From NCBI GenBank assembly GCA_017397745.1, contig JAFQIC010000049.1:1-42468 (forward strand): a stretch of 42,468 nt of DNA. Reading direction: 5' to 3'. How positions within the stretch are numbered: the first letter of the stretch is position 1; each line of letters opens with the position of its first letter. Both the position numbers and the translations under genes were made by a program. A model generated the notes under the pieces. That model saw only the letters and a list, made by a program, of their open reading frames with translations, did not search any database and was not told the DNA's origin. Positions 206 to 36,571 of this stretch are shown in pieces. The DNA is from Bacilli bacterium. GTDB taxonomy: Bacteria > Bacillota_I > Bacilli_A > RF39 > UBA660.

Positions 206-212
206 ATGTTTT

Positions 213-3430: not shown

Positions 3431-3477
3431 TAAAAAAACCAACCTTTCTAATATATATTGGTTGATTTAAATTTTTT

Positions 3478-13338: not shown

Positions 13339-13423
13339 ATTTTAGTCCCCTTTCTTTTGCCACTTGATTATAGCATATATCATAAATTTAGTAAAGTAAT
13401 TGAAAAGTTAACGTAAAAAAAAT

Positions 13424-13439
13424 TATTTCCCGGGAAATA
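13424..13439. promoter_or_regulatory. Noc-binding site (NBS), perfect 16-bp palindrome TATTTCCCGGGAAATA
   Basis: Exact match to the B. subtilis NBS consensus as I recall it. Embedded in a 26-bp perfect palindrome at 13419-13444 that overlaps the jag stop codon, in the jag-mnmE gap. Confidence 0.7.
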
Positions 13440-13442
13440 ATT

Positions 13443-14063
13443 TTATTTATTTTTTGCATCTTTATATTTAATAACTACATATCTATTTGGCTCTTCGCCT
13501 TCACTTTTTGTTTCAACATATTTAAACCCAGATAATGCATCATGTATTAATTTTCTTTCATAAGAATTCATAGGATCTAATTTTATGTCTGCTTTTGTTA
13601 ATGTTACTTCTCTAGCTAATTTTTTAACTTTTTTCTCTAAAAAATAATTTTGTTTTTGTTTATAATTTTCAACATCTATTGTTATATTAACAAAAATATC
13701 TAATCTTGCATATATAGCTTGTCTTACAAATAATTGAATAGCTTCCAATATATGACCATTTTTACCTATAATAATTGAATTATTTTCAGAATGTATTGAA
13801 TAAGTAATTGTTTTTTCTCTTATTTTAGATTCAATATTTCCTTCTACATTTAATCCTTTCAATAAATTTTTTATAAGTTCTTTTCCAAGTTCTTGAACAT
13901 CACTTACTTTAACAACTTCTAATATATATTTTTTTCCTTTTAATAAACCAGCTTTTTCTTCTTTTAAACTATAATATATTTCATTTTCTGATAAATTTAG
14001 TGTTTCTAAAGCACTTTTTAAAAGTATATCTTCTTTTTTTCCTTCAAATCTTAACTTTTCCAT
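13443..14063 (-). CDS. jag: Jag/KhpB RNA-binding protein (Jag_N, KH, R3H)
   Basis: 206 aa. KH-like IIIGKNGHILEAIQ and R3H motif SYERKLIHDAL. Conserved position after yidC. Confidence 0.9.
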   Translation of the reverse strand: MEKLRFEGKKEDILLKSALETLNLSENEIYYSLKEEKAGLLKGKKYILEVVKVSDVQELGKELIKNLLKGLNVEGNIESKIREKTITYSIHSENNSIIIGKNGHILEAIQLFVRQAIYARLDIFVNITIDVENYKQKQNYFLEKKVKKLAREVTLTKADIKLDPMNSYERKLIHDALSGFKYVETKSEGEEPNRYVVIKYKDAKNK

Positions 14064-14080
14064 AATACCACATTCCTTAC

Positions 14081-15034
14081 TTATTTTTTGCTTTTTGATT
14101 TTTTAACTACTTTTACTGTTTTTACTTTATTTGATGTATCTAATTTATTCATTGTAAAATTTTGAAGTATAGTAAATCCATTTGAAACTATCCAATAAAG
14201 TGCAATCGCAGCTGGTAGACTGAACGAAACAAATCCTATAAATACTACCATAAATGTATTCATTGTCTTCATTTGTTTTGCTTGTGCATCATCCGATGAA
14301 TTCATAGTTGTATTTTTAAATGAAAAATATGTTGCAAGTATTATTAATACAACTAATAATAAATACCAATAGTTTCCAGTTTTTAATGCTTCACTAGGTG
14401 TAGTTCCTAACTTAAATACCCATAATTTTTCTTCAAATATAACTGGTATTCTTTGAATTGCTTCTAAAAATGCGAAGAAAATTGGTATTTGTAAAAATGC
14501 AAATAAACATCCTGAAAATGGACTAATATTATATTTTTTATATATCATCATCATTTCTTGAGCTTTCATATTCATAGAAATCTGATCTGTTTTTCCTGCA
14601 TATTTTTTCTCGAGTCTATCTAGTTCGGGTTTTGCTTTATTCATATTTTGACTCATATTTGTTGATTTTCTAGTTAAAGGTATCATAATAACTCTCATTA
14701 AAACACCAAGTATCATTATTGAAATTCCATAACTTTTAACAAAATCACCAAGTTTTATTATTAAATATGCAAGAGGTTTTACAAATATAGAAGTCCAAAG
14801 TCCCTCATAACCACCTGATGTAACTTTAAATTTTTCGCATTCTGGTAGTTTTTCTAAATCCACTTTTAACTGTTTTTCATTTTCTTCATAAATATCAAGT
14901 AATTTTTCAGATTCAGGCTTACAAAGAATATTTGATGTGTATGCTTTTTTGCTTTCCTTGTCTACAAAGTTTTTTGTACATCCTGTTGTTAACATTAACA
15001 TAAACACCATTAAAATTATTAATTTTTTCTTCAT
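14081..15034 (-). CDS. yidC: Membrane protein insertase YidC/SpoIIIJ (lipoprotein type)
   Basis: Lipobox LTTGC after the signal peptide, multi-TM 60-kDa-IMP core, basic C-terminal tail. Overlaps rnpA by 4 nt. Confidence 0.93.
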   Translation of the reverse strand: MKKKLIILMVFMLMLTTGCTKNFVDKESKKAYTSNILCKPESEKLLDIYEENEKQLKVDLEKLPECEKFKVTSGGYEGLWTSIFVKPLAYLIIKLGDFVKSYGISIMILGVLMRVIMIPLTRKSTNMSQNMNKAKPELDRLEKKYAGKTDQISMNMKAQEMMMIYKKYNISPFSGCLFAFLQIPIFFAFLEAIQRIPVIFEEKLWVFKLGTTPSEALKTGNYWYLLLVVLIILATYFSFKNTTMNSSDDAQAKQMKTMNTFMVVFIGFVSFSLPAAIALYWIVSNGFTILQNFTMNKLDTSNKVKTVKVVKKSKSKK

Positions 15035-15354
15035 TTATTTTCTCCTTTTATTAAGTTTATTAACTCTCTTTCTTTTTCTTGATAATTAATATTTAATATT
15101 TCTTTTCTTAATATTATAACATAATTTTTAGAGTCTTTAATATTATTTTTTCTAATTATTTCTTTAACAGTTCTTTTTTGTTTATTTCTAATTACTGCGT
15201 TTCCTATTTTTTTACTTACACTAATACAATATCTATTATAATCAATATTATTTTCTATAAAATAAATAATAAAATATTTACTTATTAACTTTTTCCCTTT
15301 TTTTATAATAGACTGTATTTCAGTATTTTTAGTTATTATAAATTTTTTATTCAT
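15031..15354 (-). CDS. rnpA: Ribonuclease P protein component
   Basis: 107-aa basic protein (VSKKIGNAVIRNKQKR) immediately downstream of rpmH. Confidence 0.9.
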   Translation of the reverse strand: MNKKFIITKNTEIQSIIKKGKKLISKYFIIYFIENNIDYNRYCISVSKKIGNAVIRNKQKRTVKEIIRKNNIKDSKNYVIILRKEILNINYQEKERELINLIKGENK

Positions 15355-15380
15355 AGAAATTCCTCTTCAGCATTATTATA

Positions 15381-15406
15381 TAAAAAAAACTAGTAAAACA
15401 CTAGTA
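15381..15406 (-). terminator. Weak hairpin/attenuator between rpmH and rnpA
   Basis: Two ACTAGT copies (15389-15394 and 15400-15405) can pair. On the minus strand they are followed by a T8 run. The stem is only 6 bp. Confidence 0.3.
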
Positions 15407-15411
15407 TTTTT

Positions 15412-15534
15412 TTATCTTGCTAATACTTTTCTACCTTTTTTTCTTCTAGAAGAAATTATTTTACTTTTAGCTCTTGCTAAAAATCCCATTTTTTTACTTT
15501 TCTTTCTATTATTAGGTTGAAATGTTCTTTTCAT
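15412..15534 (-). CDS. rpmH: 50S ribosomal protein L34
   Basis: Hand translation gives [40 protein letters not shown], 40 aa. Canonical MKRTFQP start. Below the ORF-track length cut-off. Confidence 0.95.
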
Positions 15535-15613
15535 ATTTTTTTCCTCCAAATTCAAACTTTTTTCTTGACTTGTATGATTATAAACTATACAATAAATTTT
15601 GTCAATTTAAATT

Positions 15614-15807
15614 TTATCCACAATATTGTTAATAAGTATTTTTTAATGTTAAAAGTTATTTTGTGGATAATGTTAATAACTTAAGTTTATGCAGTTAAAT
15701 AAGGGAAAAAGAATGTGGAAAAGTTGTGAATTTAGTGTGAGAAAGTAATGTTAATAAAATTTATACTTTAATTTTCCACATTTTTATTTTACAATGAATG
15801 TGGAAAA
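15614..15807. other. oriC left part: DnaA-box cluster upstream of dnaA
   Basis: TTATCCACA at 15614-15622. TGTGGATAA at 15662-15670, abutting TGTTAATAA at 15671-15679. One-mismatch boxes TGTGGAAAA at 15714-15722 and 15799-15807, and TTTTCCACA at 15772-15780. Further TGTTAATAA copies at 15627-15635 and 15749-15757. Confidence 0.85.
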
Positions 15808-15828
15808 CGTAAATCAGAGGTGAGGGTT

Positions 15829-17202
15829 ATGGATGTTATTAAAATTTGGAATGACTTTTTAGATATTTTATCAACAAGAATATCATCTATTTCTTTTAGT
15901 ACTTGGTTTAAAGAAAGTACTTTGCACTCACTTAAAGATGGTATTGCTAAAATTACAGTACCTTATGAACCTTCAAAAATACATATTACTGAAAATTATT
16001 ACGATTTAGTAGAAGAAATACTATTATATATAACTGGAAAACAGTATGAAATAGAAGTTTATTTACCTTCTGAAGTAACTTCTGAGGATAATTCTGTTGA
16101 AGAAATTACTAATAAAATTTCTGAAAATACAATAGAAGATTACAAATATTATAGTAATTTTAATCAAAAATATCGTTTTGATAACTTTGTAGTTGGAGAC
16201 TCTAATCGTTTTGCATATTCAAGTGCACTCGCGGTAGCTGAAAGACCAGGTAAACTTTATAATCCTTTATTTATCTATGGAAAAAGTGGGCTTGGTAAAA
16301 CGCATTTAATGCATGCGATTGGTAACTTCTTATTAGAAAACTCTGATAAAAAGGTTTTATATATTACAAGTGAACAATTTATAAATGATTTTATAAATAT
16401 AAATAAAAAAGAAGATAAATCTAAAGATAATGTAAGTTATATTGATGTATTTAAAAGAAAATATAGAGATGTTGATGTACTTATGATTGATGATATTCAA
16501 TTTTTAGGACCAGCAACTAAATCTCAACAAGAATTTACTAATACTTTTAATACACTTTATGATAATGAAAAACAAATTATTATATGTAGTGATAGAAGTG
16601 TGGATGACTTAAAATTATTAGAAGATAGACTTAAAACTAGATTCAATTGGGGACTAAAAGTTGATATTAATCCACCTAACTTTGATTTAAAAGTTCAAAT
16701 TATAAAAAATAAAATTGAAGTTGGAGATCTTGCGATTGATTTAAGTGATGACATAATTAATTTTATTGCTAGTAACTGTGGAAATGATGTTAGAAATTTA
16801 GAAGGTGCAATTACTAGACTAGTTGCTTATTCCGCAATTATGAATATAAAAAGTTTAACAATAAATGATGCGATGGATGCATTGTCGGATTATACAAATA
16901 ATTTAATATACTCACAAAATACTATAACTAAAATTCAAAATATAGTTGCTAACTATTTCAAATTACATCCTGATGATTTAAAGAGTAAAAAAAGAAGCAA
17001 ACCTATTGCAAATGCTAGGCAAATTGCTATGTATCTATGTCGAACTATGACAGAAGAAACACAACAAAGAATAGGTTTAGAATTTGGAGGTAGAGATCAT
17101 TCCACAGTTATTCATTCTTATGAAAAAGTTAATAATGATATAATTAATAACAAAGAACTTGACAAAATAATAACAGAACTCAAACAACTAATATGTGAAT
17201 AG
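15829..17202 (+). CDS. dnaA: Chromosomal replication initiator protein DnaA
   Basis: AAA+ Walker A GKSGLGKTHL, box VII and sensor motifs, and C-terminal DnaA-box-binding domain (IANARQIAMYLCR...DHSTVIHS). ATG 15829 follows GAGGTGAGG. The track start GTG 15820 lies inside that Shine-Dalgarno. Confidence 0.97.
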   Translation: MDVIKIWNDFLDILSTRISSISFSTWFKESTLHSLKDGIAKITVPYEPSKIHITENYYDLVEEILLYITGKQYEIEVYLPSEVTSEDNSVEEITNKISENTIEDYKYYSNFNQKYRFDNFVVGDSNRFAYSSALAVAERPGKLYNPLFIYGKSGLGKTHLMHAIGNFLLENSDKKVLYITSEQFINDFININKKEDKSKDNVSYIDVFKRKYRDVDVLMIDDIQFLGPATKSQQEFTNTFNTLYDNEKQIIICSDRSVDDLKLLEDRLKTRFNWGLKVDINPPNFDLKVQIIKNKIEVGDLAIDLSDDIINFIASNCGNDVRNLEGAITRLVAYSAIMNIKSLTINDAMDALSDYTNNLIYSQNTITKIQNIVANYFKLHPDDLKSKKRSKPIANARQIAMYLCRTMTEETQQRIGLEFGGRDHSTVIHSYEKVNNDIINNKELDKIITELKQLICE

Positions 17203-17219
17203 TATTAATAATTAATAGT

Positions 17220-17300
17220 TTATCAACATTCAAAAACACTTGATTTTATCTAAAAAAATTGAGTTATTAACATTATCCACATCTAAAATAATAATAATAT
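17220..17300. other. oriC right part: DnaA boxes plus A/T trinucleotide repeat between dnaA and dnaN
   Basis: TTATCAACA at 17220-17228. Abutting pair TTATTAACA (17264-17272) and TTATCCACA (17273-17281). This is followed by TC TAA AA TAA TAA TAA TAT (17282-17300), an all-A/T stretch. Confidence 0.7.
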
Positions 17301-17330
17301 ATAAAATAAAATAAGAAAGGAAATAAAAAA

Positions 17331-18452
17331 ATGAAATTTAAAATAAATAGAAATTTATTACTTGAGAATTTAAATAATGTAAGTAAAGCATTATCAACAA
17401 GAAATATTATCCCTATACTAAATGGTATAAAATTTAATTTAACAAAAGAAGGACTTTTTTTAACAGCCACTGACAACGAAATAGTTATAGAAAGTTTTAT
17501 AGATAAAAAAGATATAAAACTAATAAAAGAAGAAGGAGCTTTAGTAATACATGGTAGGTATATACTTGATATAGTAAGAAAACTTCCTGATGAAGAAATA
17601 GATATTGAAGAAAGTGATGGTAATAAAGTAATAATTTTTACAGATAATAGTAAATATAACTTAAATTGTTTTAACTTAAATGATTTTCCAAATATTACTT
17701 TTAATGATAGTGAAAATAATATAAATATATCAACTTTAGAATTTAAAAATATTATAAATGAAGTTATTTTTGCTTGTTCAACTCAAGAAAGTAGACCTTT
17801 ATTAACTGGTGTAAATATAAAAATAATTGGAAACTTTTTAGAATGTACAGCAACTGATTCTTATAGGCTTGCTAAAAGAATTTATAATTTAAATGATATT
17901 ATAAAAGAAAATATTAATATTGTAATACCATCAAGAAATATAAGTGAATTTGTTAAATTATTAACAAAAGAAGATATAAATGTTAATATCCATTTATTTA
18001 ATAACAAAATAATTTTTAAATATGATAATATGATTTATCAATCAAGTTTATTAAATGGTACTTATCCTAATACAGATAATTCAATTCCTAATGAGTTTGA
18101 AATTGAATATGAAATTTCTTTAAATGACTTATACAATGCAGTAGACAGAGCATCATTACTTACTTCTTCAAAAGAAAAAAATATTATAGAATTTGTAAGT
18201 AATGAAGATGTAATTACTATAATGTCTATGAGTCAAGAGATAGGTAAAGTAGAAGAAAAATTAAAAGGAAATAAGTTAAAAGGAAATAATATTAAAATAT
18301 CCTTTAGTGCAAAATATATGCTTGAAGCTTTAAAGACTTTTGATAGTGAAAAATTAAAATTACTTTTAAATGGTGAAATTAAACCAATAGTTATAAAAAG
18401 TGAAGAAAACCCTGATCTTATTCAATTAATTTTACCAATAAAAACTTTTTAA
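17331..18452 (+). CDS. dnaN: DNA polymerase III beta sliding clamp
   Basis: 373 aa. MKFKINRNLLLENLNNVSKA start, three-domain clamp length, position after dnaA. Confidence 0.96.
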   Translation: MKFKINRNLLLENLNNVSKALSTRNIIPILNGIKFNLTKEGLFLTATDNEIVIESFIDKKDIKLIKEEGALVIHGRYILDIVRKLPDEEIDIEESDGNKVIIFTDNSKYNLNCFNLNDFPNITFNDSENNINISTLEFKNIINEVIFACSTQESRPLLTGVNIKIIGNFLECTATDSYRLAKRIYNLNDIIKENINIVIPSRNISEFVKLLTKEDINVNIHLFNNKIIFKYDNMIYQSSLLNGTYPNTDNSIPNEFEIEYEISLNDLYNAVDRASLLTSSKEKNIIEFVSNEDVITIMSMSQEIGKVEEKLKGNKLKGNNIKISFSAKYMLEALKTFDSEKLKLLLNGEIKPIVIKSEENPDLIQLILPIKTF

Positions 18453-18534
18453 ACTTACGACATAATTCAACAAATTTCGATAAAAGTATATGTTAATATA
18501 ACTTCCAAATTTTTTGAAAGGAGGAAGTTTTTTA

Positions 18535-19005
18535 ATGAATTATGAAATAAATGACGAAACTTTAGCGGTACTTCCTATTAGTGATAATAAATGTAGGGTA
18601 GTAGAAAACTCAAATGAATATTATATTGATACAAATTCTTTTGATGTTATTGAACACAGTTGTGAATATTTTGGTAGTACTTTTTTAGGAAGGCATGTTG
18701 GCTCTATAAAGATGCTTGGATCAAGATATAAAACTCCTATCATTATTGCTGAAACTGATTCTATTATAGTTTTTCCTACACATTCACCTAGAAATAAAGA
18801 ATGTATTTGGATTTGTTTAAATAATATTAATAAAATTTATAAAACAAACAATGATAAAACTGTTATTGAATTTGTCTCAGGAGATATTTTAGAATTAAAT
18901 ATTTCTTATAATGTAGTAAATAATCAAATATTAAAAGCAACTAGATTAAAACATATTATTGATGAAAGAAAAAACACTTTAAATAATACTAATAAAGTGT
19001 TATAA
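18535..19005 (+). CDS. ComK-family transcription factor homologue
   Basis: By-eye alignment to B. subtilis ComK as I recall it. ETLAVLP matches ATIAVLP. IEHSCEYFGSTFLGRHVGS matches VDRSCRFFGSSYAGRKAGT. YKTPIII matches HKPPIMV. IIVFPTHS matches IFLFPTLS. ELNISYNVVNNQILKATRL matches ELPISYNSFENQVYRTAWL. ATG 18535 follows AAAGGAGGA. The track TTG start at 18514 is an artefact. Confidence 0.75.
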   Translation: MNYEINDETLAVLPISDNKCRVVENSNEYYIDTNSFDVIEHSCEYFGSTFLGRHVGSIKMLGSRYKTPIIIAETDSIIVFPTHSPRNKECIWICLNNINKIYKTNNDKTVIEFVSGDILELNISYNVVNNQILKATRLKHIIDERKNTLNNTNKVL

Positions 19006-19072
19006 TTGTAATAGGTATATGTATATTACTATACCTATTATTTTCTTTATAATTTACAAAAGAGGGTTTAAA

Positions 19073-20146
19073 ATGAATGTCACTAAATTAGAATTAATTA
19101 ATTTTAGGAATTATGAAAAATATAAATTAGAGAATTTAAAACAAAAAAATATTATACTTGGAGATAATGGAACAGGTAAAACAAGTATATTAGAATCTAT
19201 TTACTTTGGTAGTATTACTAAAACTTTTAAAAGTAGTTCAGACTCTGTTGTTATAAAAAAAGAAAAAGATTTTTCAGTAGTAAAAATTGAACTTGATATT
19301 AATAATAAATTAAAAAAATTAGAAGTTAGAATTACTGAAAATGGAAAGAAAACTAAAATTAATGGAAAACTAAAAAAAAGACTTAGTGATTATATTTCAA
19401 CATATAAAGTAATTATATTTTCACCTGATGAAATTAAAGTTATAAAAGGAACTCCTCAAAATAGAAGAAATTATATAAATATTCAAATATCTCAGTTAAA
19501 TAAGTACTATATTACAAAACTTAATAATTATAATACTTTAATAAAAAATAAAAATGAATATTTAAAAAAAATGTATTTAAATAAAAATTTAGATGAAATA
19601 TATTTGGATATAATTGATAAAAAAATATCAGAATTAGGATTTGAGATTTGTAGTTATAGAAATGAGTATTTGAATAAAATAAATAATTATATATCAAATA
19701 AAATGAAAAAATTTAAAGAAAATAGTAGTCTTTTTATAAAATATAATTCAGATTTTGATGGTTTAGATGAAGAAAAAATATTTAGACTTTTAAAAAAGGT
19801 AAGAAAAAAAGAAATAATTATGGGTGTATCTAGTGTAGGTATTCATAGAGATGATTTTGAATTTATTTATAACAATCAAAATGCGAAAGAATTTTGTTCA
19901 CAAGGTATACAAAAATTGATAATATTATCTATGAAACTTTCTGAAAATGAATTATTAATAAAAGATTATGGAATATATCCTATATTGCTTCTTGATGATT
20001 TATTTAGTGAATTAGATAAAACAAATCAAAATAAAGTACTTAAAAATTTAAGTAAACAAAATCAAATTTTTATTACAACTACTGATTTAAATAATATAGA
20101 TAAAAAAATAGTAAATAATTCAAATATTTTAACTTTAAAAGATTAG
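19073..20146 (+). CDS. recF: DNA replication and repair protein RecF
   Basis: Starts MNVTKLELINFRNY. Walker A GDNGTGKTS, signature and Walker B regions (ILLLDDLFSELD). ATG 19073 follows AGAGGG. The track start at 19019 adds a hydrophobic artefact. Confidence 0.93.
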   Translation: MNVTKLELINFRNYEKYKLENLKQKNIILGDNGTGKTSILESIYFGSITKTFKSSSDSVVIKKEKDFSVVKIELDINNKLKKLEVRITENGKKTKINGKLKKRLSDYISTYKVIIFSPDEIKVIKGTPQNRRNYINIQISQLNKYYITKLNNYNTLIKNKNEYLKKMYLNKNLDEIYLDIIDKKISELGFEICSYRNEYLNKINNYISNKMKKFKENSSLFIKYNSDFDGLDEEKIFRLLKKVRKKEIIMGVSSVGIHRDDFEFIYNNQNAKEFCSQGIQKLIILSMKLSENELLIKDYGIYPILLLDDLFSELDKTNQNKVLKNLSKQNQIFITTTDLNNIDKKIVNNSNILTLKD

Positions 20147-22072
<1,926 letters not shown>

Positions 22073-22082
22073 GAGGGTTAAA

Positions 22083-24542
22083 ATGGATCACAGTAGAGAT
22101 AGATTGGAAAATAATAATATAGTAAGTGAAGTAGAATCATCTTTTTTAGAGTATTCAATGAGTGTTATAGTTTCTCGTGCCTTACCTGATTTAAGAGATG
22201 GTTTAAAACCGGTTCATAGAAGGATTCTTTATTCAATGTATGAATCAGGTTATACTCCAGACAAACCTCATAAAAAAAGTGCTAGAATAGTCGGAGATGT
22301 AATGGGAAAATATCATCCACATGGCGACTCTAGTATTTATGAAGCAATGGTTCGTATGGCTCAAGATTTTAGTTATAGATATATGCTTGTAGATGGTCAT
22401 GGAAATTTTGGTAATATAGAAGGTTATGGTGCCGCAGCTATGCGTTATACAGAATCTAGGCTATCAAAAATTTCATTAGAATTACTAAGAGATATTAATA
22501 AAAATACCGTAGATTTTTCACCAAACTTTGATGAATCTGAGAAAGAACCGGCAGTACTACCTTCAAGATTTCCTAATATTTTAGTAAATGGTACAATGGG
22601 TATTGCGGTAGGTATGGCTACCAATATTCCTCCACATAACTTAGGTGAAGTAATAGATGGTTGTGTTGCTTATATAGAGAATCCTGAAATTGATACTATG
22701 GGATTAATGCAATATATTAAAGGGCCAGATTTTCCTACAGGTGGAGTTATTTTAGGTAATAGTGGTATAAGAAAAGCATATGAGACTGGAAGAGGTTCTA
22801 TTACAATTAGAAGTAAGGCTATTATTGAAGAAAAAAACGGAAGACATTATATTATAATCGATGAAGTTCCTTATGGAGTAAGTACATTAGAACTTAAAAA
22901 TAAAGTAGCTGAACTTGTTCATAATAAGGTTATTGATGGTATTTCAGATTATCATACAGATTTAAAAAACGGTGTTAAAATCACTATAACTTTAAAAAAA
23001 GATGCTAATCCACAAGTAGTTTTAAATAATTTATATAAACATACTCAATTTCAAACTAATTATAGTATTATGTTTTTAATGTTAGACGATATGGTACCTA
23101 AAACTTTACCTCTTAAAGACATTATAAGTAAATATATTGATTATCAAAAAGAAATAATTATAAGAAGAACTAAATTTGATTTAGATAAAGCTGAAAAAAG
23201 AGTTCATATTTTAAATGGTTTAAAAATAGCGCTTGATAATATAGATGAAGTAATTAAAATTATAAAATCATCAAAAAGTGATGAAATAGCTAAAGCCGAG
23301 CTTTCTTCAAGATTTGGATTAGATAATATTCAGGCTGATGCTATACTAGAAATGAAACTTCGTAGATTAACAGGTTTAGAAAGAGAAAAAATAGAAAATG
23401 AAATTAATGAATTATTAAAATTAATTGATGAATTGCGTTCAATTCTAGCAAGTGAACAAAAAGTTTTAGAAATAATTAAATCAGAAATGCTTGAAATTAA
23501 ACAAAAATATGCTGATGAAAGAAAAACATCTATTGACATGACTGCAATTGATTATATTGATGATGAGTCTCTTATACCAAATGAAGATGTTATTGTAACA
23601 ATTACACAAAATAATTATATTAAAAGATTAACTACTGATACTTACAAGACACAAAATAGAGGTGGTGTGGGTATTAAAGGTATGACTACAAATGATGAAG
23701 ATTTTGTAAAAGATATAATAAATCTTAAATCACATGATTATATATTATTTTTCTCAAATAAAGGTAAAGTTTATAGATTAAAAGGCTATGAAATTCCTGA
23801 GTTTAGCAGAACATCTAAAGGAATTCCGCTAGTAAATTTATTACAAATAGAAAAACAAGAAGTTATTAACACTATAATTACAGTAAGTAGAGATAATACG
23901 TACAAATATTTGGTGTTTGCTACTAAAAAAGGCATAATAAAAAGAACTCCAATAGAAGATTTTGATAATATAAGGCAAAATGGTAAGATAGCTATTACCC
24001 TTAAGGAAGACGACGAATTAATATCAGTACTAAAAACTACGGGTGAAAATCATGTTCTAATGTGTTCTTCAAAAGGTAAAATGGTAAGATTTAAAGAATC
24101 AGAAATTAGAGTTATGGGAAGAACAGCTGGTGGTGTTAGAGGAATTAGATTATTAACAGATAATTGTGTAGGCGCCGATGTGACAGATGATGAAAAGAAA
24201 GTTTTAATAGTAACCGAAAAAGGATACGGTAAAAAGACTGATGTATCTGAATATAGAGAAACTAAAAGAGGAAGTAAAGGTGTGAAAACTCTTAATATTA
24301 CAGATAAAAATGGCGATATCATTGGATTTAAGTCTACAACAGAAGATGTTGATTTAATGCTAATTACAAACAATGGAATAGTAATAAGGTTAGATATTAA
24401 TTCTGTATCAAATATGGGTAGAGTAACTCAAGGTGTTAGATTAATAAATCTTAAAGAAAACAATAAAGTTTCATCCATTTCATTAATTAACAAAGAAAAA
24501 AATAGTGAAAATAATGAAACTGAAGATAAAAAAGAAATTTAA
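22083..24542 (+). CDS. gyrA: DNA gyrase subunit A
   Basis: Contains [17 protein letters not shown], the QRDR region [20 protein letters not shown], the catalytic AAMRYTE Tyr, and a C-terminal beta-pinwheel. Confidence 0.98.
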
Positions 24543-24566
24543 ATGTTCCGTGTGGAACATTTTTTA
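24541..24566 (+). terminator. gyrA intrinsic terminator hairpin that also resembles parS
   Basis: AAATGTTCC-GTGT-GGAACATTT followed by TTTT, starting at the gyrA stop codon. The core TGTTCCGTGTGGAACA (24544-24559) matches parS TGTTNCACGTGAAACA at 13 of 16 positions. Confidence 0.65.
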
Positions 24567-24598
24567 AATAACAAAAAATTGTTAATATAATATTAAAT

Positions 24599-24614
24599 TA
24601 TTTCCCGGGAAATA
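24599..24614. promoter_or_regulatory. Noc-binding site, perfect TATTTCCCGGGAAATA
   Basis: Exact 16-mer within a 28-bp perfect palindrome at 24593-24620, 39 bp downstream of the parS-like hairpin. Confidence 0.7.
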
Positions 24615-24942
24615 ATTTAAACATTTTTAAGTTTTAAAGACTGTTTATTTTGCAATAATTTTTTATAATTATTATGATTTTGTTAAAAATATAAAAAAAT
24701 TCAAAAATATGATGGTGTAAAAATATAACTTGATACAGGAGTCTTTGGATATTTGGAAAAAGAATGGATATGTTTGTTTTAAACACAAATTAATAAAATA
24801 GCTAATTTGTAATATTTATCTTTAATAAATAGAAAAAGCAATAATAATCGTTTAGCTATTTTTTCATGTTCGGTTATTAAGATAAATTATTCTATAAAAT
24901 AATAAATTTTTTCTATCGCTTTTTTTAAAAAATTAAAAATTA

Positions 24943-24958
24943 TGTTTCCCGTGGAACA
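24943..24958. promoter_or_regulatory. parS-like / hybrid parS-NBS site TGTTTCCCGTGGAACA
   Basis: Matches parS TGTTTCACGTGAAACA at 14 of 16 positions. The left half TGTTTCCC combines the parS G at position 2 with the NBS C at position 7. It is not downstream of any gene, so a terminator role is unlikely. Confidence 0.4.
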
Positions 24959-24961
24959 AAT

Positions 24962-24977
24962 TATTTCCCGGGAAATA
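24962..24977. promoter_or_regulatory. Noc-binding site, perfect TATTTCCCGGGAAATA
   Basis: Exact 16-mer within the perfect palindrome 24958-24981, 3 bp from the parS-like site. Confidence 0.7.
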
Positions 24978-24993
24978 ATTTTCTTATTTACTA

Positions 24994-25022
24994 TTGATTA
25001 TAATTAAAAAAAATAGTAATAT
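24994..25022 (+). promoter_or_regulatory. Candidate sigma-A promoter of the SRP RNA gene
   Basis: TTGATT (24994-24999), a 17-nt spacer, then TAATAT (25017-25022). This places the transcription start about 7 nt downstream, at the base of the SRP RNA helix. Confidence 0.45.
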
Positions 25023-25029
25023 TTATTTA

Positions 25030-25101
25030 GCACAACACATGATTGTAGAACCAGGTCAGAATCGGAAGATAGCAGCCTTAATACAACTTATGTGTGTGTG
25101 C
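25030..25101 (+). ncRNA. ffs: Small (4.5S-type) signal recognition particle RNA
   Basis: ACCAGGTCAGAATCGGAAGATAGCAGCC matches SRP domain IV of E. coli 4.5S RNA (ACCAGGUCAGGUCCGGAAGGAAGCAGCC), with a GGAA tetraloop and compensatory stem changes. The flanks GCACAACACAT and ATGTGTGTGTGC pair, and a T-run follows. Ends are approximate. Confidence 0.8.
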
Positions 25102-25120
25102 TTTTATTTAGGAGAAATAT

Positions 25121-25531
25121 ATGAAAGAAGAAATTATAAATAAATTATTAAAATTAATAAAAAAAGCAGAACAAAAAAATGAGGTTCCTGTTGCAGCGGT
25201 TTTAGTAAAAAATAATAAAATAATTTCATCTGCTTATAATAAAAAAAATAAAACTAACAATATTTTAATGCACGCAGAAATCTTGTGTATATTAAAATGT
25301 ATAAAAAAAATGAAAAATTGGCGTTTAGATGATTGTGATCTTTATGTTACGCTTGAACCTTGTGATATGTGTAAAAACATAATTGAAGAAGCAAGAATTA
25401 AAAATGTGTTTTATTTTTGTGAAAAAACGTCTAAAAAAATATCAAAAACAACTTATATACATATGAATACAAAAATAAATAAATATATTAATACTAGACT
25501 TAAAACTTTTTTTGAAAGTAAGAGAAAGTGA
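25121..25531 (+). CDS. tadA: tRNA-specific adenosine deaminase
   Basis: CDA zinc motifs HAE (MHAEILC) and PCDMC (LEPCDMCKNII). 136 aa. Conserved position before dnaX. Confidence 0.88.
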   Translation: MKEEIINKLLKLIKKAEQKNEVPVAAVLVKNNKIISSAYNKKNKTNNILMHAEILCILKCIKKMKNWRLDDCDLYVTLEPCDMCKNIIEEARIKNVFYFCEKTSKKISKTTYIHMNTKINKYINTRLKTFFESKRK

Positions 25532-25561
25532 TATAATTAAGTAACGAAAGGTGGTGTTATT

Positions 25562-27184
25562 GTGGCATATACTGCTTTATATAGAAAATATAGACCTAAA
25601 ACTTTTAGCGATGTTTTTGGACAGGAAATAATTGTGGAAATATTAAAGAACTCAATTATTAACAACAAAATCGGACACGCATATTTGTTTGCGGGTGTTA
25701 GAGGAACTGGAAAAACAAGTATTGCAAAAATATTTGCAAAAGCAGTTAATTGTATAAATAATACTACTGGAGACGCGTGTAATGAATGTGAAGCGTGTAA
25801 AAATTTAGAGACAAGTGATATAGATATAATAGAAATAGATGCTGCGAGCAATAATGGTGTTGATGAAATAAGAGAAATAAGGAATAATGCTAAACTTGTA
25901 CCTACATTTTCAAAATATAAAGTTTATATTATTGATGAAGTGCATATGCTTTCATCAGGTGCTTTTAATGCATTGCTAAAAACTTTAGAAGAACCACCAT
26001 CACATGTTATTTTTATATTAGCAACAACTGAAGTAAATAAAATACCTTTAACGATATTATCTAGATGTCAAAGATTTGATTTTAAGCGTATTCCTTTAGA
26101 AATTTTAAAACAAAGACTTTTGTACATTATAGAAAAAGAAAACAAAACTGTGGATGAAAATATTTTAAAATTAATATGTGAACTTGGTGATGGAAGTTTT
26201 AGAGATACTATTAATTTACTTGATCAAGTAATTGATATAAAAGATGTAGATGAAAACTTTTTATATAGATTAAGTGGAAGTCTACCAATCAATAAAACAA
26301 TAACTTTTTTTGAAAAAATAGTTGCCGCTGATGTTTCCTCAGTGCTGGATGAAATTGAAATTTTCTCTTTAAATGGAATTAGTTATTCACTCGTAACAGA
26401 AAAATTATTGATTTTGATTAGAGATATTTCAATTAATAATACTATAAGTAGTTATTTTAATGAAGAATATATTAATGTATTAAATAAATTTGATTTTATA
26501 AATACAGATCAAATAAAAAAGATTAATTCTACGTTATTAGAATTAATTTCAGATTTAAAAAAGTCTACAAATCAAAGAATAACTTTCGAAATTTATATGA
26601 TAAATATTATTAATATTTTTAATGAAGAATCTAATGTAGAAAAGATAATTTTAAAAAAAGAAATAAAAGAAGAAATAAAAACAGAAGAAACTAAAACAAA
26701 TGTTCTTGAAGAAAAAAACGATTTACTACTAGAACTAAAAAAAATAAGGATAAATAATACTTTAGCTACTGCGGACAAATCCATACTTAATAGTATTAAT
26801 GAAAAATTTTCAATTATAGAAGATTATATTTCAAATAAAAATTATAATTCTATTGCTAGGATTATACTAGAATCTCAAATAGTATGCGCAGGAAAAAATA
26901 ATTTGATACTTTTATTAAAATCTTTATCATCAATAAATATACTAAATGATTCAATTATAAAAGCTGAAGAATTATTATCAAAAGTGTTTGAAAATGACTA
27001 CAAAATAGCCACCGTTTTACCAGAAGAATGGTCACAAATTAAAAATGAATTTATAGAAAATTTAAAAAATGGTAAAAAATACGAGATTATTGAAGAAAAA
27101 AATGTTATTATAAATAAAGAAAGAAGTGATATTGAAAAAGAAGCAATAGAAATATTTGGCGAAGAAAATATCACCGTTAATTAG
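25562..27184 (+). CDS. dnaX: DNA polymerase III subunit tau (gamma/tau)
   Basis: Starts YRKYRPKTFSDVFGQE. Walker A GVRGTGKTS, a Zn module CNECEAC, the IIDEVHMLS Walker B box, and SRCQRF. GTG start after AAAGGTGG. Confidence 0.96.
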   Translation: MAYTALYRKYRPKTFSDVFGQEIIVEILKNSIINNKIGHAYLFAGVRGTGKTSIAKIFAKAVNCINNTTGDACNECEACKNLETSDIDIIEIDAASNNGVDEIREIRNNAKLVPTFSKYKVYIIDEVHMLSSGAFNALLKTLEEPPSHVIFILATTEVNKIPLTILSRCQRFDFKRIPLEILKQRLLYIIEKENKTVDENILKLICELGDGSFRDTINLLDQVIDIKDVDENFLYRLSGSLPINKTITFFEKIVAADVSSVLDEIEIFSLNGISYSLVTEKLLILIRDISINNTISSYFNEEYINVLNKFDFINTDQIKKINSTLLELISDLKKSTNQRITFEIYMINIINIFNEESNVEKIILKKEIKEEIKTEETKTNVLEEKNDLLLELKKIRINNTLATADKSILNSINEKFSIIEDYISNKNYNSIARIILESQIVCAGKNNLILLLKSLSSINILNDSIIKAEELLSKVFENDYKIATVLPEEWSQIKNEFIENLKNGKKYEIIEEKNVIINKERSDIEKEAIEIFGEENITVN

Positions 27185-27195
27185 GAGGAAAACTT

Positions 27196-27489
27196 ATGAA
27201 TATGCAAAATTTAATGGCGCAAGCAAGAAAAATTCAATCTGAAATGGAGAGACTAACACAAGCAATCGAGAGTAAAGAATTTACTGCATCAACTGAAGCA
27301 ATAACTGTTGTTGCTAATGGGAAAAATGAAATACTTAAAATTGAAATTAAAGATGAGAGTATTTTAAGCGCAAAAGAAATCACAGAAGATATGTTAACAG
27401 TTGCTGTTAATGATGTTTTAAATCAAATAAAAAAAGAAAAAAACGATAAATTAGGAAAATATACTGGTGGTATGGGAGGATTATTCTAA
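27196..27489 (+). CDS. ybaB: Nucleoid-associated protein YbaB/EbfC
   Basis: 97 aa. NMQNLMAQARKIQSEM start and C-terminal GGMGGLF. Conserved dnaX-ybaB-recR order. Confidence 0.92.
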   Translation: MNMQNLMAQARKIQSEMERLTQAIESKEFTASTEAITVVANGKNEILKIEIKDESILSAKEITEDMLTVAVNDVLNQIKKEKNDKLGKYTGGMGGLF

Positions 27490-27490
27490 A

Positions 27491-28090
27491 ATGATTTATC
27501 CTAAAGATTTTGAAGAACTTTTAGAAAGCTTTAAACTATTACCTGGAATAGGAGAAAAATCAGCTGAAAGATTTATTTTTTCGCTAGTCGATATAGATGA
27601 TAAAGAAATAGAAAAATTTTCTCAAAATCTTGTTAATTTTAAAAAAAATATAAAACCTTGTAAAACATGTGGACATTTAACTGATAAAGAAGAATGTAAT
27701 ATATGTTCGGATAATAAAAGAGATAAAAGTGTAATTTGTGTAGTTCAAGATGTAAAAAGTGTATTTACTTTTGAAAAAGCGGGTAATTATAAAGGCATGT
27801 ATCATGTTTTAGGAGGATTAATATCGCCGATAGATGATATTAATCCTGAAGATATAAATATAGCTAATTTAATTAATAAACGATTAAATGATGTTGTAAA
27901 AGAAGTTATTATTGCCCTTAATCCATCGATTGAAGGAGAAACAACTAGTTTATATATTCAAAAACTTCTAGAAACTAAAAATATTAAAGTTTCTAGGTTA
28001 TCTTATGGAATTCCTATGGGATCTGACATAGAATATTTAGACCCACTTATGATTATAAAGGCTTTAGAAGATAGAAAATATATATCATAA
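27491..28090 (+). CDS. recR: Recombination protein RecR
   Basis: HhH motif LPGIGEKSAERF, C4 zinc finger CKTCGHLTDKEECNIC, and a Toprim domain. ATG 27491 follows GGGAGGA. The track start at 27467 overlaps ybaB. Confidence 0.95.
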   Translation: MIYPKDFEELLESFKLLPGIGEKSAERFIFSLVDIDDKEIEKFSQNLVNFKKNIKPCKTCGHLTDKEECNICSDNKRDKSVICVVQDVKSVFTFEKAGNYKGMYHVLGGLISPIDDINPEDINIANLINKRLNDVVKEVIIALNPSIEGETTSLYIQKLLETKNIKVSRLSYGIPMGSDIEYLDPLMIIKALEDRKYIS

Positions 28091-28120
28091 TTGTAAGTTG
28101 TAACACATAGAATTTTATGG

Positions 28121-28315
28121 GTGAACATAGTGAAATTTGTAATGAAATTGATAAAAAAGTTAGTAATTAGCCTTTGTATGCTGTATACTTTCAATTTAAT
28201 TATAAGTAATTCTGGTTATATGGTACCTATAAACGTTCCTTCAATAACCATTTCAGCTTTTCTAGGTATGCCAGCTATTTTATCATTACTAATTTTAAAA
28301 ATAATTATTAAATAA
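28121..28315 (+). CDS. bofA: Pro-sigma-K processing inhibitor BofA
   Basis: Small two-TM protein. GYMVPINVPSITISAFLGMPAILSLLILKIII aligns with the B. subtilis BofA C-terminus GIHVPINLVTTAISGILGIPGIAALVVIKQFI. Follows recR as in Bacillus. The start is uncertain: GTG 28121, GTG 28130 or ATG 28142. Confidence 0.8.
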   Translation: MNIVKFVMKLIKKLVISLCMLYTFNLIISNSGYMVPINVPSITISAFLGMPAILSLLILKIIIK

Positions 28316-28328
28316 CGGAGAGTAAGAA

Positions 28329-29123
28329 ATGAAATTAGAAGAATATTTTAAAATATCAAATGATTTAAATAAATTAAATCACTCATATTTAATTGGAAAT
28401 ACAACACTTGATGATATAAAAAATAATCTTCAGAATATTTTATCATCTTATTTTTTTTATGAAAGTATAAATTTATATGAAGAAGCTGACATAATAATTG
28501 TAAAACCTGAGGGAAGCTCTATTACAAAAGATCAAATAATATCTATGCAAAACAAAGTTTCATCAACATCTTTATCTCATAATTTAAAAGTATATATTAT
28601 AGATTGTGCGGAAAAATTAAACATTTACGCCGCTAATAGTCTTCTTAAAGTTTTAGAAGAGCCTAGCCAAAATATTTATGCATTTTTAATAACAAGTAAT
28701 TTAGATTCAGTTTTAGGAACAATAAAATCTAGATGTAACATTATATTTTTAAGTTCTGAAAAACAAGAAAATGAAATTAGTGAAGAAATAAAAAAAGAAG
28801 CACTTTTTTTAGCTCAAACTTTAGAAAAATATAAAGAAAAAAGTATTGCATTTTATAATTATAATCTTTTAAATAAAGAAAATATAGAGCAGTTACTAAC
28901 ATATTTGCTTTTTATTTATAGAGATTCTATAAATTATTTTTACGGTAAGAAATTAAAATACACAGAAATAAACGAAACCTTAAATTTAATAAAAAATAAT
29001 AATGATGTCAATAAAATTATAAATAAAATATCAATAATTAATGACATAATTAAAAATTTAAATTATAATTTAAATATAAATTTATTAATTGACAAATTAT
29101 TTATAAAGTTTGGTGGTGTTTAA
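28329..29123 (+). CDS. holB: DNA polymerase III delta-prime subunit
   Basis: Contains AANSLLKVLEEP and SRC motifs. 264 aa. Conserved position before ricT. Confidence 0.85.
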   Translation: MKLEEYFKISNDLNKLNHSYLIGNTTLDDIKNNLQNILSSYFFYESINLYEEADIIIVKPEGSSITKDQIISMQNKVSSTSLSHNLKVYIIDCAEKLNIYAANSLLKVLEEPSQNIYAFLITSNLDSVLGTIKSRCNIIFLSSEKQENEISEEIKKEALFLAQTLEKYKEKSIAFYNYNLLNKENIEQLLTYLLFIYRDSINYFYGKKLKYTEINETLNLIKNNNDVNKIINKISIINDIIKNLNYNLNINLLIDKLFIKFGGV

Positions 29124-29124
29124 A

Positions 29125-29940
29125 ATGGTTAAAATTATAAACTGTGAATTTAAAAAAAATGGGAAAAGTTATTATTTTGATTCAAATAATATAGAATTAA
29201 AAAAAGACGATCAAATTATAGTTGAAACAGAAAGAGGTCTTCAGTTTGCCACTGTTATTTCAGATGTTAAAGAAATAGAAGAATCATCTTTAAATTATAA
29301 TTTACAAAAAGTAGTTAGAAAAGTTACAAAGGATGATATTTCAAAACATATAAAGAATATAAATGATGCTAAGTCGGCATTAAAAAAGGCTGAGTCTTTA
29401 GTCCAAAAACTAAAACTCGAAATGAAATTTACTGAAGTAATTTATACTTTTGATAGAAATCAGCTTCTATTTTATTACTTATCAGATAATAGAGTTGACT
29501 TTAGAGAATTAGCAAGAGAACTTGCCTCTATATATAAAACACGTATTGAACTTAGGCAAATAGGAGTAAGAGATAAAGCGAAAGAGATTTCTGGTATAGG
29601 TCCTTGTGGAAGAGAACTTTGTTGTGCTTGTTTTCTTCAAGATTTAGATTCAGTAAGTATTTCAATGGCAAAAAATCAAAATTTAGCTCTTAACCCAACT
29701 AAAATAAATGGATTATGTGGAAGACTACTATGTTGTCTAAATTATGAAGATGTTCTGTATACTGAAAATAAAACAGATATGCCAGAACTTGGTGATATAG
29801 TTAAGACTGAGCATGGAGAAGGGACTGTTTTTTTAGTAGATATTCCTAATAGAAAATACTTAGTAAATGTTCCAGAACACGGTAAGGTTGAAATTAAACT
29901 GGAAAAAAAGTGTGGTAAATGTGAAAACTGTAATAAATGA
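29125..29940 (+). CDS. ricT: PSP1-domain protein RicT/YaaT (stage 0 sporulation, RNase Y regulator complex)
   Basis: PSP1 C-terminal domain with the Cys cluster GPCGRELCCACFL...GLCGRLLCCLNYE. ATG 29125 follows GGTGGTG, immediately after the holB stop. Confidence 0.9.
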   Translation: MVKIINCEFKKNGKSYYFDSNNIELKKDDQIIVETERGLQFATVISDVKEIEESSLNYNLQKVVRKVTKDDISKHIKNINDAKSALKKAESLVQKLKLEMKFTEVIYTFDRNQLLFYYLSDNRVDFRELARELASIYKTRIELRQIGVRDKAKEISGIGPCGRELCCACFLQDLDSVSISMAKNQNLALNPTKINGLCGRLLCCLNYEDVLYTENKTDMPELGDIVKTEHGEGTVFLVDIPNRKYLVNVPEHGKVEIKLEKKCGKCENCNK

Positions 29941-30673
29941 TTTAGTTGGTTTTAAAAATATAAAAATTGTACAATGTAGAGATTATTTTAATTTTAGTTT
30001 GGATTCAGTATTGCTTCCAAATTTTTGTGTTTTAAATAAAAATGTAAAAAAAATACTTGATATTGGATGTGGAAATTGCCCAGTTAGTATTATTTTATCA
30101 TTAAAATGTGATGCTGAAATAACTGCGGTTGAACTTCAAAAAGAAATATATGATCTTGCTGAAGAGACACTTAGAATAAATCGACTAGAAAAAAGAATAA
30201 ATTTAATAAATGAAGATATAAAAGATTATTCAAAAAAAATAGATACAGATAGCTATGATTTAATAGTATCAAATCCACCATATTTTAAAATATATGAAAA
30301 GACATTAAAAAATGAAAATATTGTTAAATCAATTGCGCGTCATGAGATAACTCTTACTTTAGAAGATATAATTATTATAAGCAAAAAACTTTTAAAAAAT
30401 AATGCTTCTTTAGTTTTAGTACATAGAACTGATAGATTAGCTGAAATAATTAATCTTATGAAAAAAAACAATATAGAACCAAAGAGAATAAGATTTGTTT
30501 ATCCAAAAGAAAACACTCATTCAAATATGGTTTTAATTGAAGGCAAAAAGAACGCTAAAGAAGGCCTTAAAGTATTGCCACCATTAATAACGCATAATAA
30601 CGATGGGTCATATACAGAAGAAGTAAAAAAATGTTTTCATGAAAGAGGTACAAATGATACAAAAAAGTTATGA
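29921..30673 (+). CDS. tRNA1(Val) adenine-N6 methyltransferase-like protein (YabB/TrmN6 family)
   Basis: SAM motif ILDIGCGNCPVS and catalytic NPPYF. The start is uncertain. The track ATG 29867 overlaps ricT by 74 nt. GTG 29921 gives an N-terminus of typical length for the family. Confidence 0.8.
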   Translation: MKTVINDLVGFKNIKIVQCRDYFNFSLDSVLLPNFCVLNKNVKKILDIGCGNCPVSIILSLKCDAEITAVELQKEIYDLAEETLRINRLEKRINLINEDIKDYSKKIDTDSYDLIVSNPPYFKIYEKTLKNENIVKSIARHEITLTLEDIIIISKKLLKNNASLVLVHRTDRLAEIINLMKKNNIEPKRIRFVYPKENTHSNMVLIEGKKNAKEGLKVLPPLITHNNDGSYTEEVKKCFHERGTNDTKKL

Positions 30674-31508
30674 AAAAAGTAAATATGGAAATTTATATAT
30701 AGTTCCAACACCTATAGGAAATCTTGATGATATAACTATTCGTGCTTTAAATACACTTAAAGAAGTAGATTATATTTTATCTGAAGACACACGTGTAACA
30801 TTGGTTTTATTAAATAAATACGAAATAAAAAAGAAACTTTGTACTTGCCATAAATTTAATGAAGCAAAAATAAAAGATAAGGTATTAAATGATTTAAAAA
30901 ATGGGCTAAATATTGCTCTTGTTACTGATAGAGGCACTCCTTTAATTAGTGATCCTGGTTCAGTTATTGTTAAAAGTTGTATTGATAATGAAATAAATGT
31001 TATAGCTCTTCCTGGTCCAAGTGCGTTATTGCCGGCTTTAAATGTATCTGGTTTAGATACAGAAAAATTCTTGTTTTATGGATTTTTAAGCAACAAAGAA
31101 ACTGAAAGAAAAAAAGAACTTGAGATGTTAAAAGAAGTAAAATTTACAATAGTTTTATACGAATCACCTCATAGACTTCCTAAAACTTTACAAAATATGC
31201 GTAAAATTTTAGGAAATAGGCAAATAATTATTTCCCGGGAAATAACTAAGAGGTATGAAGAGGTATTTAGAGGTACAATTGAAGAAGCAATAGAAGTATA
31301 TAAAAATATTCTTGGTGAAATAGTAATAGTAGTAGAAAAAAATAATGAAAAAGATATAATAAATGAAGAAAATCTAATTAAGGAAGTTGATAATTTAGTT
31401 AAAAGTGGTTTGAGAAAAAAAGAGGCAATAAAAATAGTAGCTGAAAAATTTAACTTTTCTAAAAATTTATTATATAATATGTACGAAATGCATGAAAGGA
31501 AAAATTAA
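30654..31508 (+). CDS. rsmI: 16S rRNA (cytidine1402-2'-O)-methyltransferase
   Basis: Contains GNLYIVPTPIGNLDDIT, EDTR, SDPG and ISREITK motifs. ATG 30654 is preferred over 30639. Confidence 0.93.
   Translation: MIQKSYEKSKYGNLYIVPTPIGNLDDITIRALNTLKEVDYILSEDTRVTLVLLNKYEIKKKLCTCHKFNEAKIKDKVLNDLKNGLNIALVTDRGTPLISDPGSVIVKSCIDNEINVIALPGPSALLPALNVSGLDTEKFLFYGFLSNKETERKKELEMLKEVKFTIVLYESPHRLPKTLQNMRKILGNRQIIISREITKRYEEVFRGTIEEAIEVYKNILGEIVIVVEKNNEKDIINEENLIKEVDNLVKSGLRKKEAIKIVAEKFNFSKNLLYNMYEMHERKN
31229..31244. promoter_or_regulatory. Noc-binding site, perfect TATTTCCCGGGAAATA, inside the rsmI coding sequence
   Basis: Formed by the codons ATT ATT TCC CGG GAA ATA (I I S R E I). TCC and CGG are unusual choices in a gene set that mostly uses AGA for Arg. 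Confidence 0.65.
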
Positions 31509-36556: not shown

Positions 36557-36571
36557 TGTTATGGAGGACAA

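Follow-up and report, generated by a model that had tools for sequence, protein, structure and literature searches.

Perfect Noc-binding sites clustered near oriC in an uncultured gut Bacilli bacterium and their putative reader, a Noc-type ParB paralogue

What does a Noc-type protein do when the sites it presumably reads are packed around the replication origin? In the textbook account, Noc arose when a duplicated ParB acquired a different DNA specificity and, with it, a new job, namely tethering the chromosome arms to the membrane so as to block division. The question is raised by a stretch of 42,468 nucleotides from an uncultured 'Bacilli bacterium' of ruminant-gut metagenomes (assembly GCA_017397745.1, contig JAFQIC010000049.1, positions 1 to 42,468; hereafter the window), an oriC region with a GC content of about 24%. 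A preliminary description of this sequence had noticed four palindromes matching the Noc-binding site (NBS) close to dnaA, together with a Noc-like gene at 8149-9330, and had called their distribution parS-like rather than Noc-like. It is proposed here, with a probability of roughly 0.6, that the four NBS are the cognate loading sites of the protein encoded at 8149-9330, and that this protein would have an origin-organising role, beside ParB or, in this species, perhaps instead of it. A relative of a nucleoid occlusion protein would then probably act on the origin and not on the chromosome arms.

The 16-mer TATTTCCCGGGAAATA is present exactly four times in the window, at 13424, 24599, 24962 and 31229, and chance is a poor explanation, as had been argued before: the mean over shuffled sequences is 0.01 copies, and none of 100 shuffles reaches four. 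It is the published NBS (Jalal 2020, PMC7383237), with a core identical to that of Staphylococcus aureus (Pang 2017, PMC5540599), which supports the earlier identification. Each copy sits in a perfect palindrome within the reported range of 18-28 bp (Table 1), and all four CCCGGG hexamers of the window fall in these sites, consistent with their description as its most GC-rich motif. No further copy of TATTTCCCGGGAAATA with up to two mismatches exists in the window, and a search for the 14-bp core with up to three mismatches returns the same four sites alone from the 42 kb, against 1.56 expected by chance; since degenerate copies are absent, a site is either perfect or not there at all. Measured from dnaA, the cluster reaches 2.4 kb to the left and 15.4 kb to the right, all within 18 kb, and no NBS with up to two mismatches lies in the 23 kb left of the cluster or the 11 kb right of it. 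The visible DNA of the window species amounts to about 52 kb, the window plus 10 kb further left (locus L171), on contigs of at most 56 kb; on the right side every contig of the species ends about 0.5 kb past the window.

The sites are also conserved. At least seven independent metagenome assemblies contain the window species with NBS 1-3 unchanged; their loci stop short of NBS 4. The intergenic slot between jag and mnmE that holds NBS 1 carries a perfect NBS in loci L034-L037 as well, whose Noc-like protein is 51-64% identical, and in at least 12 further species. NBS 4 lies within a coding sequence, and its CGG codon is the sole CGG among 189 arginine codons sampled; the rarity of this codon therefore provides direct evidence of selection on the DNA motif.

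The presumed reader of these sites is indeed Noc-type. Its Pfam matches are PF02195 (6.9e-33) and PF17762 (1.9e-31). Among the NCBIfam models it fits nucleoid_noc (TIGR04285) best; the score of 277.6 bits stays under the curated cut-off of 315 because a linker insertion breaks the match, which covers model positions 2-213 of 255. The best solved relatives are Noc proteins, those of Geobacillus (7NG0, 1e-57) and Bacillus subtilis, ahead of Spo0J (1VZ0, 5e-50); over the N-terminal and DNA-binding domains the identity is 53% and 48% to Noc versus 42% to the clade's own Spo0J. Work on the specificity code has demonstrated that ParB changes its preference from parS to NBS once it carries Q173 and R201 together with a lysine at 179, at 184 or at both (PMC7383237). 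At the positions corresponding to 173, 179, 184 and 201 (Caulobacter numbering) the window protein has Q132, K138, A143 and R160, the Q, K and R being invariant in 12 full-length homologues; in place of the parS-type residues (R173 and G201, reading parS TGTTNCACGTGAAACA) there are Q and R. The motifs for binding cytidine triphosphate (CTP), G61-E62-R63-R64 and E95-N96-x-Q98-R99, are intact and invariant in 12 family members, and their counterparts in B. subtilis Noc contain R89 and N121, both needed for CTP binding (PMC8429893). The gene lies directly downstream of rsmG (9433-10131) on the same strand, a positional match to noc.

Two hallmarks of better-known relatives are absent. The protein begins MDLEKGVKLINIDD, and its IIPNRFQPR block starts at residue 15, compared with residue 38 in B. 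subtilis Noc, 23 residues later. An upstream stop codon bars any extension of the open reading frame (ORF), leaving the start at most 19 residues before the block, and all 12 homologues are equally short. In Noc a 10-residue amphipathic membrane-targeting sequence is needed for both membrane binding and nucleoid occlusion (PMC8429893); given the short N-terminus and the lack of an upstream extension, this helix is missing in the window protein. The LGKGL-type (LG+GL) ParA-stimulating peptide of Spo0J is absent too. An AlphaFold model predicts folded N-terminal, DNA-binding and C-terminal domains, the last being Noc-like with a predicted local distance difference test (pLDDT) value of about 87, and before it a disordered linker, 130-170 residues long across the family and modelled with low confidence. 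This linker (residues 204-347) nevertheless contains short motifs conserved in the family, D-x-D-K-I-K, PEI(L/M)DFD and NSIIEEFR, which may be partner-binding peptides.

A wider scan, with the 22-mer common to three of the four window sites as the query, followed the distribution of NBS through 185,579 genomes that each represent a different species. It returned at least 120 blocks of 8 kb from at least about 118 genomes. Among the matches listed, the low-GC blocks come from more than 100 uncultured gut Bacilli species and are nearly all the origin region, as recognised by tblastn with the window proteins; only two of 115 are without any origin-region gene, one of them (L145) a 338-bp fragment and the other L075. 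The 24 low-GC contigs of at least 100 kb (5.3 Mb, including a complete chromosome of 1.52 Mb) each contribute one 8-kb block to these matches. The same slots recur, including in L158-L160: gyrA|tadA, dnaX|ebfC (at the 3' end of dnaX), within yabB, rsmI|pth, jag|mnmE and rsmG|noc. By far the commonest is gyrA|tadA, with 71 sites in at least 29 loci plus truncated loci, and sites within yabB or at the rsmI|pth junction, near the position of NBS 4, occur in at least 24 loci. Across 240 sites in the blocks listed (L038-L157) the clade consensus reaches past the 16 bp to the 24-bp palindrome AAATTATTTCCCGGGAAATAATTT, with A at -2 in 234 and T at -1 in 213, which suggests extra flanking contacts. 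The 22-mer form is present in 189 of these 240 perfect 16-mers and in about 58% of the co-resident sites not used for ascertainment, and is therefore a fair proxy.

This origin-confined pattern differs from that of an established Noc. Chromatin immunoprecipitation sequencing of S. aureus Noc gave 41 peaks, none with a perfect 14-mer, 39 with an imperfect motif and two with none; a single peak falls outside the roughly 700 kb on each side of the origin, and the peaks closest to the origin are at about 13, 30 and 67 kb (PMC5540599). Set against this, sites that are all perfect and confined to the origin are distributed like parS. The parS-like distribution holds for the four sites in about 52 kb of the window species and, as far as exact matches go, for nearly all listed low-GC blocks, and to that extent the claim of the preliminary description stands.

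In relatives, the spacer between gyrA and tadA, the same slot as 24543-25023 of the window, contains perfect NBS alternating with perfect canonical parS, TGTT[T/C]CACGTG[A/G]AACA, in tandem units of 62-126 bp that each hold one NBS and one parS, up to 11 units in a row (Table 1). The palindrome cores are near-perfect, with one mismatch in two of the 11 NBS of L149, while the spacers vary from unit to unit. In 904 kb of the low-GC blocks listed there are 243 perfect NBS and 240 perfect parS, versus fewer than 0.01 expected; 83 of the 172 NBS in loci having a perfect parS lie within 80 bp of one, and tight pairs with 19-38 bp between starts are common. NBS in this clade thus sit beside parS, not in its place. 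No description of composite parS/NBS arrays, of a helix-less Noc or of Noc in Erysipelotrichia-like Bacilli was found in the searchable literature.

What of parS in the window species itself? No perfect parS exists in the roughly 52 kb around its origin, and two mutated relics occupy the expected positions in the gyrA-tadA spacer, with no parS elsewhere at up to two mismatches. In L158 and L159 the stop codon of gyrA is followed by a perfect parS, TGTTCCACGTGGAACA, to which relic 1 corresponds in position; relic 1 forms a hairpin (24541-24562) that probably terminates gyrA. Relic 2 is one base (A7 to C) from the form used by relatives, TGTTTCACGTGGAACA, and two from the classical TGTTTCACGTGAAACA. 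Both are fixed, being identical in seven assemblies, and related spacers seldom lack a perfect parS (about 3 of about 60 loci listed; about 95% keep one). Mutated parS together with perfect NBS fits a relaxation or loss of the ParB-parS system in the window lineage. The preliminary description had also pointed to the absence of spo0J and soj after noc. It is true that a penicillin-binding protein (PBP) gene on the opposite strand follows instead, and soj-spo0J is not adjacent. The reading of this as a loss of ParB was rejected: loci L158-L160 share the noc|PBP order with no adjacent soj-spo0J, yet have two to five perfect parS in the gyrA-tadA spacer, so that ParB must be encoded elsewhere in them and its absence beside noc is no proof of loss. 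Another clade member, L103, keeps noc-soj-spo0J, with a Spo0J that begins RRALGKGLEELF and has the R..G specificity residues. The earlier suggestion that the Noc-type protein has taken over has its whole support in the two mutated relics of the window species, which make it plausible.

Table 1. Coordinates of the binding sites, their presumed reader, the origin and the parS-related features (window positions, or positions within the named locus for the arrays)
Feature	Location	Strand	Description
NBS 1	13419..13444		26-bp perfect palindrome around TATTTCCCGGGAAATA; jag|mnmE intergenic, 2.4 kb left of dnaA
NBS 2	24593..24620		28-bp perfect palindrome; 51 bp past gyrA stop, in gyrA|SRP-RNA/tadA spacer
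NBS 3	24958..24981		24-bp perfect palindrome AAATTATTTCCCGGGAAATAATTT, equal to clade consensus; abuts parS relic 2
NBS 4	31228..31245		18-bp palindrome within rsmI-like ORF (30639-31508), coding I-S-R-E-I
Noc-type ParB-family CTPase gene	8149..9330	-	393 aa; ParB_N, helix-turn-helix (HTH), ~130-aa disordered linker, C-terminal dimerisation domain; presumed NBS reader
oriC	15614..17281		DnaA-box clusters flanking dnaA; reference point for NBS cluster
parS relic 1	24544..24559		TGTTCCGTGTGGAACA; directly after gyrA stop; arms kept, centre ACGT changed to GTGT
parS relic 2	24943..24958		TGTTTCCCGTGGAACA; 3 bp from NBS 3
L149 array	2400-3760		11 units of 126 bp
L040 array	2230-2960		6 units; complete chromosome
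L039 array	20-460		7 units of 62 bp

A full takeover would mean that ParB/Spo0J, with Soj, has been lost, and that the Noc-type protein is the only centromere binder and SMC loader of a centromere converted from parS to NBS. The missing perfect parS, the fixed relics at both expected positions and the absence of soj-spo0J beside noc would all agree with it, and relic 1 has kept its hairpin arms and lost the central ACGT, as expected if only a terminator function stayed under selection. Against a takeover, perfect parS persist in relatives that share the gene order, so that ParB can lie elsewhere, and in B. subtilis a single mismatch need not abolish binding to parS. A Noc-type N-terminal domain is not known to recruit SMC, and a protein devoid of the ParA-activating peptide could not replace ParABS segregation as such. 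We therefore hold a full takeover to be a tentative alternative, on balance unlikely. At the other extreme, the protein could be a normal Noc engaged in ordinary nucleoid occlusion, the four sites being the origin-proximal and strongest members of a chromosome-wide, mostly degenerate set. Its gene is after all the positional orthologue of noc, downstream of rsmG, and the motif-bearing sites of S. aureus are all degenerate (39 of 41 peaks, no perfect 14-mer), so that an exact-match scan would miss such sites. Several observations of this kind weigh against an origin-specific role: the 22-mer scan recovers exact matches, degenerate or differently flanked sites escape it, and the completeness of each genome is not guaranteed; in L075, a 25%-GC contig without origin genes and the sole clear low-GC non-origin location among the matches listed, two perfect NBS (2918 and 6021) flank polA beside mutM; NBS are enriched toward the origin-proximal chromosome in Bacillus and Staphylococcus too (PMC5540599), the difference therefore being one of degree and of site perfection; and the protein may bind the membrane through another part. 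What makes ordinary occlusion improbable is that the membrane-targeting helix (PMC8429893) is absent from the whole family, that no site with one to three mismatches occurs in 42 kb where 1.56 would be expected by chance, that the 34 kb flanking the cluster are free of sites, that 5.3 Mb of long contigs show one origin block each among the matches listed, and that NBS are physically paired with parS.

A role other than DNA organisation or segregation in growing cells also deserves consideration, either in controlling initiation (DnaA/oriC firing) or in anchoring or marking the origin during sporulation, as RacA does. The S. aureus Noc controls initiation and has small peaks beside dnaA (PMC5540599), the sites of the window bracket oriC within 2.4-15 kb, and the organism carries the sporulation genes spoIIR, yabG, spo0A, yabP and spoIID. 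Set against this, no NBS lies inside the DnaA-box regions, and the commonest slot of the clade is 9 kb away beside parS arrays, pointing to the centromere rather than to oriC proper; we give this explanation a low probability. That the palindromes are no protein sites at all and are instead terminators, repeat elements or restriction-type motifs resembling NBS is scarcely credible. They are palindromic, contain CCCGGG and in relatives occur within tandem 62-126-bp repeats, but one copy lies in a coding region with a rare codon, and in the arrays the NBS and parS cores stay perfect (save for the two L149 sites) where the spacers differ. They match an experimentally defined NBS exactly, and a protein with the matching specificity residues is encoded 4 kb away. 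The terminator version was rejected, in line with the earlier judgement that the sites would be poor terminators: most copies are without a T-run after them, and the hairpin of parS relic 1 alone looks terminator-like.

For an origin-organising Noc-type protein, the following mechanism can be envisaged. A dimer held together by the C-terminal domain would read each half-site via Q132, K138 and R160 (equivalent to Q173, K179 and R201); CTP bound through the GERR and ENxQR motifs would allow the clamp to close and slide onto the flanking DNA. With loading confined to the interval from -2.4 to +15.4 kb of dnaA, this would generate a nucleoprotein zone over the origin region and not over the chromosome arms. 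Without an amphipathic helix and a ParA-activating peptide, the protein is unlikely to be a classical nucleoid-occlusion factor or a ParA partner, and the conserved short motifs of its disordered linker could serve to recruit other partners. In most relatives the Noc-type protein would act beside ParB in a composite, centromere-like region in which NBS are interleaved one-to-one with parS; in the window species the organisation of the origin by a ParB-like protein may depend mainly or wholly on it. Its role would accordingly be the organisation of the origin or the recruitment of partners rather than arm-wide nucleoid occlusion. A bolder version, which we consider doubtful, is that the clade has kept or re-created a 'missing link' between ParB and Noc, an NBS-specific, helix-less paralogue that is still centromeric and loads from the NBS lying among the parS. 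The window species would then have undergone a decay of the parS/ParB half, its centromere being in effect reprogrammed from parS to NBS.

Among known systems, the Noc-NBS system of B. subtilis and S. aureus is the closest in sequence. The two share the 16-bp site, the equivalents of Q173, K179 and R201, the ParB_N, HTH and C-terminal fold, intact CTP motifs and the gene position directly downstream of rsmG (gidB), and the best matches of the window protein are Noc crystal structures and TIGR04285. They differ in the N-terminal membrane helix, absent here, where the NRFQPR block is preceded by 23 fewer residues; in the 130-170-aa disordered linker with its conserved motifs before the C-terminal domain; in the NCBIfam score (277.6 vs 315); and in their sites, which here are few and perfect within about 30 kb around oriC, and interleaved with parS in relatives, whereas Noc systems have dozens of mostly imperfect ones, spread through the half to two-thirds of the chromosome nearest the origin. 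To the ParB(Spo0J)-parS system it is similar in having few perfect 16-bp palindromes beside oriC, on which a ParB-family CTP clamp presumably loads and spreads, and in that the arrays share the gyrA-tadA spacer with the clade's true parS; it is unlike that system in its NBS-type residues and DNA site, in its lack of the LG(K/R)GL peptide and of an adjacent parA, and in an identity of 42% to the clade's Spo0J. With the engineered ParB-to-Noc intermediates, in which one permissive lysine and both specificity-switching residues are enough for NBS preference (Jalal et al. 2020, PMC7383237), the window protein has in common its Q, K, A and R at positions 173, 179, 184 and 201. Those were laboratory variants of Caulobacter ParB, while here a natural family is found with its sites still in the centromere region. 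The RacA-ram system of B. subtilis sporulation likewise consists of a DNA-binding protein with GC-rich palindromic sites around the origin of a spore-former, and a role in handling the origin may be a further point in common; RacA belongs to an unrelated family, recognises a different motif and is no CTP clamp. By sequence, then, the window protein belongs with Noc, although it lacks the membrane helix and falls short of the curated score, and although a Noc-like scatter of its sites over all of the chromosome but the terminus region is doubtful; it would work like a ParB-type centromere complex.

The clade is of interest since it combines a Noc-type specificity with the absence of a membrane helix and with sites that have stayed at the centromere, many of them matched one-to-one by parS. 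Nature thus provides a setting in which to study the action of an NBS-specific clamp on an origin, cooperation or competition between two ParB-type clamps that load within tens of bp of each other, and the possibility of a switch in centromere sequence; the descent of Noc from ParB also becomes more accessible. On the practical side, thousands of entries from gut metagenome-assembled genomes (MAGs) labelled 'ParB/RepB/Spo0J' or 'nucleoid occlusion protein' are probably neither in function, and the origin region of these MAGs is easily recognised by the composite parS/NBS array in the gyrA-tadA spacer.

The gene order of the window corresponds to the Bacillus-type ORI cluster (described in PMC8136486), with rnpA-yidC-jag-mnmE-mnmG-rsmG-noc on the minus strand and dnaA-dnaN-comK-recF-gyrB-gyrA-[SRP RNA]-tadA-dnaX-ebfC-recR-holB-yaaT-yabB-rsmI-pth-mfd and further genes on the plus strand. 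DnaA-box clusters lie on both sides of dnaA (15614-15807 and 17220-17281), and the cumulative GC skew has its minimum at about 15-16 kb. The small gene for the signal recognition particle (SRP) RNA (25024-25110, +) starts about 45 bp downstream of NBS 3, and a T-box leader (36360-36542, +) overlaps the start of a dut-like ORF (36491-37066) upstream of metS. Between dnaN and recF there is a comK homologue (18514-19005, +), an unusual insertion into the dnaA-dnaN-recF block that is conserved in every relative examined, including L034 and L158-L160. Some strains of the window species have recF as two separate ORFs (L162:13246-14320 and L164:13246-14324), possibly through a frameshift or an assembly error. 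A strain-level rearrangement is seen beside prfA (L001:13813-21182 versus L002 and L171; also L172), where one version has spo0A, iPGM, yabP, divIC and tilS and the other, which is that of the window, prmC, spoIIR, mntP and murA.

Some matches fall outside the clade. In Listeria fleischmannii (L119:7917) and Ligilactobacillus acidipiscis (L112:7237, a 2.66-Mb contig) the sole listed block is at the gyrB/gyrA junction, and the NBS of these two conventional Bacilli may be an old origin-proximal site that predates the clade. The 16-mer occurs in 27 stretches of viral contigs, mostly of high GC and without a link to the present system; one viral or plasmid-like contig of 28 kb and 44-49% GC (IMGVR_UViG_3300048835_000741; L022-L024) contains three copies and may represent a mobile element that uses NBS-like sites. 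Finally, several MAG records (L051, L052, L049, L069 and others; CAZVIQ01, CAZBKY01, CAYJKL01 and CAVBMP01) hold a Bacilli-type origin of 24-28% GC under the titles 'uncultured Muribaculaceae bacterium' or 'Bacteroides helcogenes', and their bins look mislabelled or contaminated.

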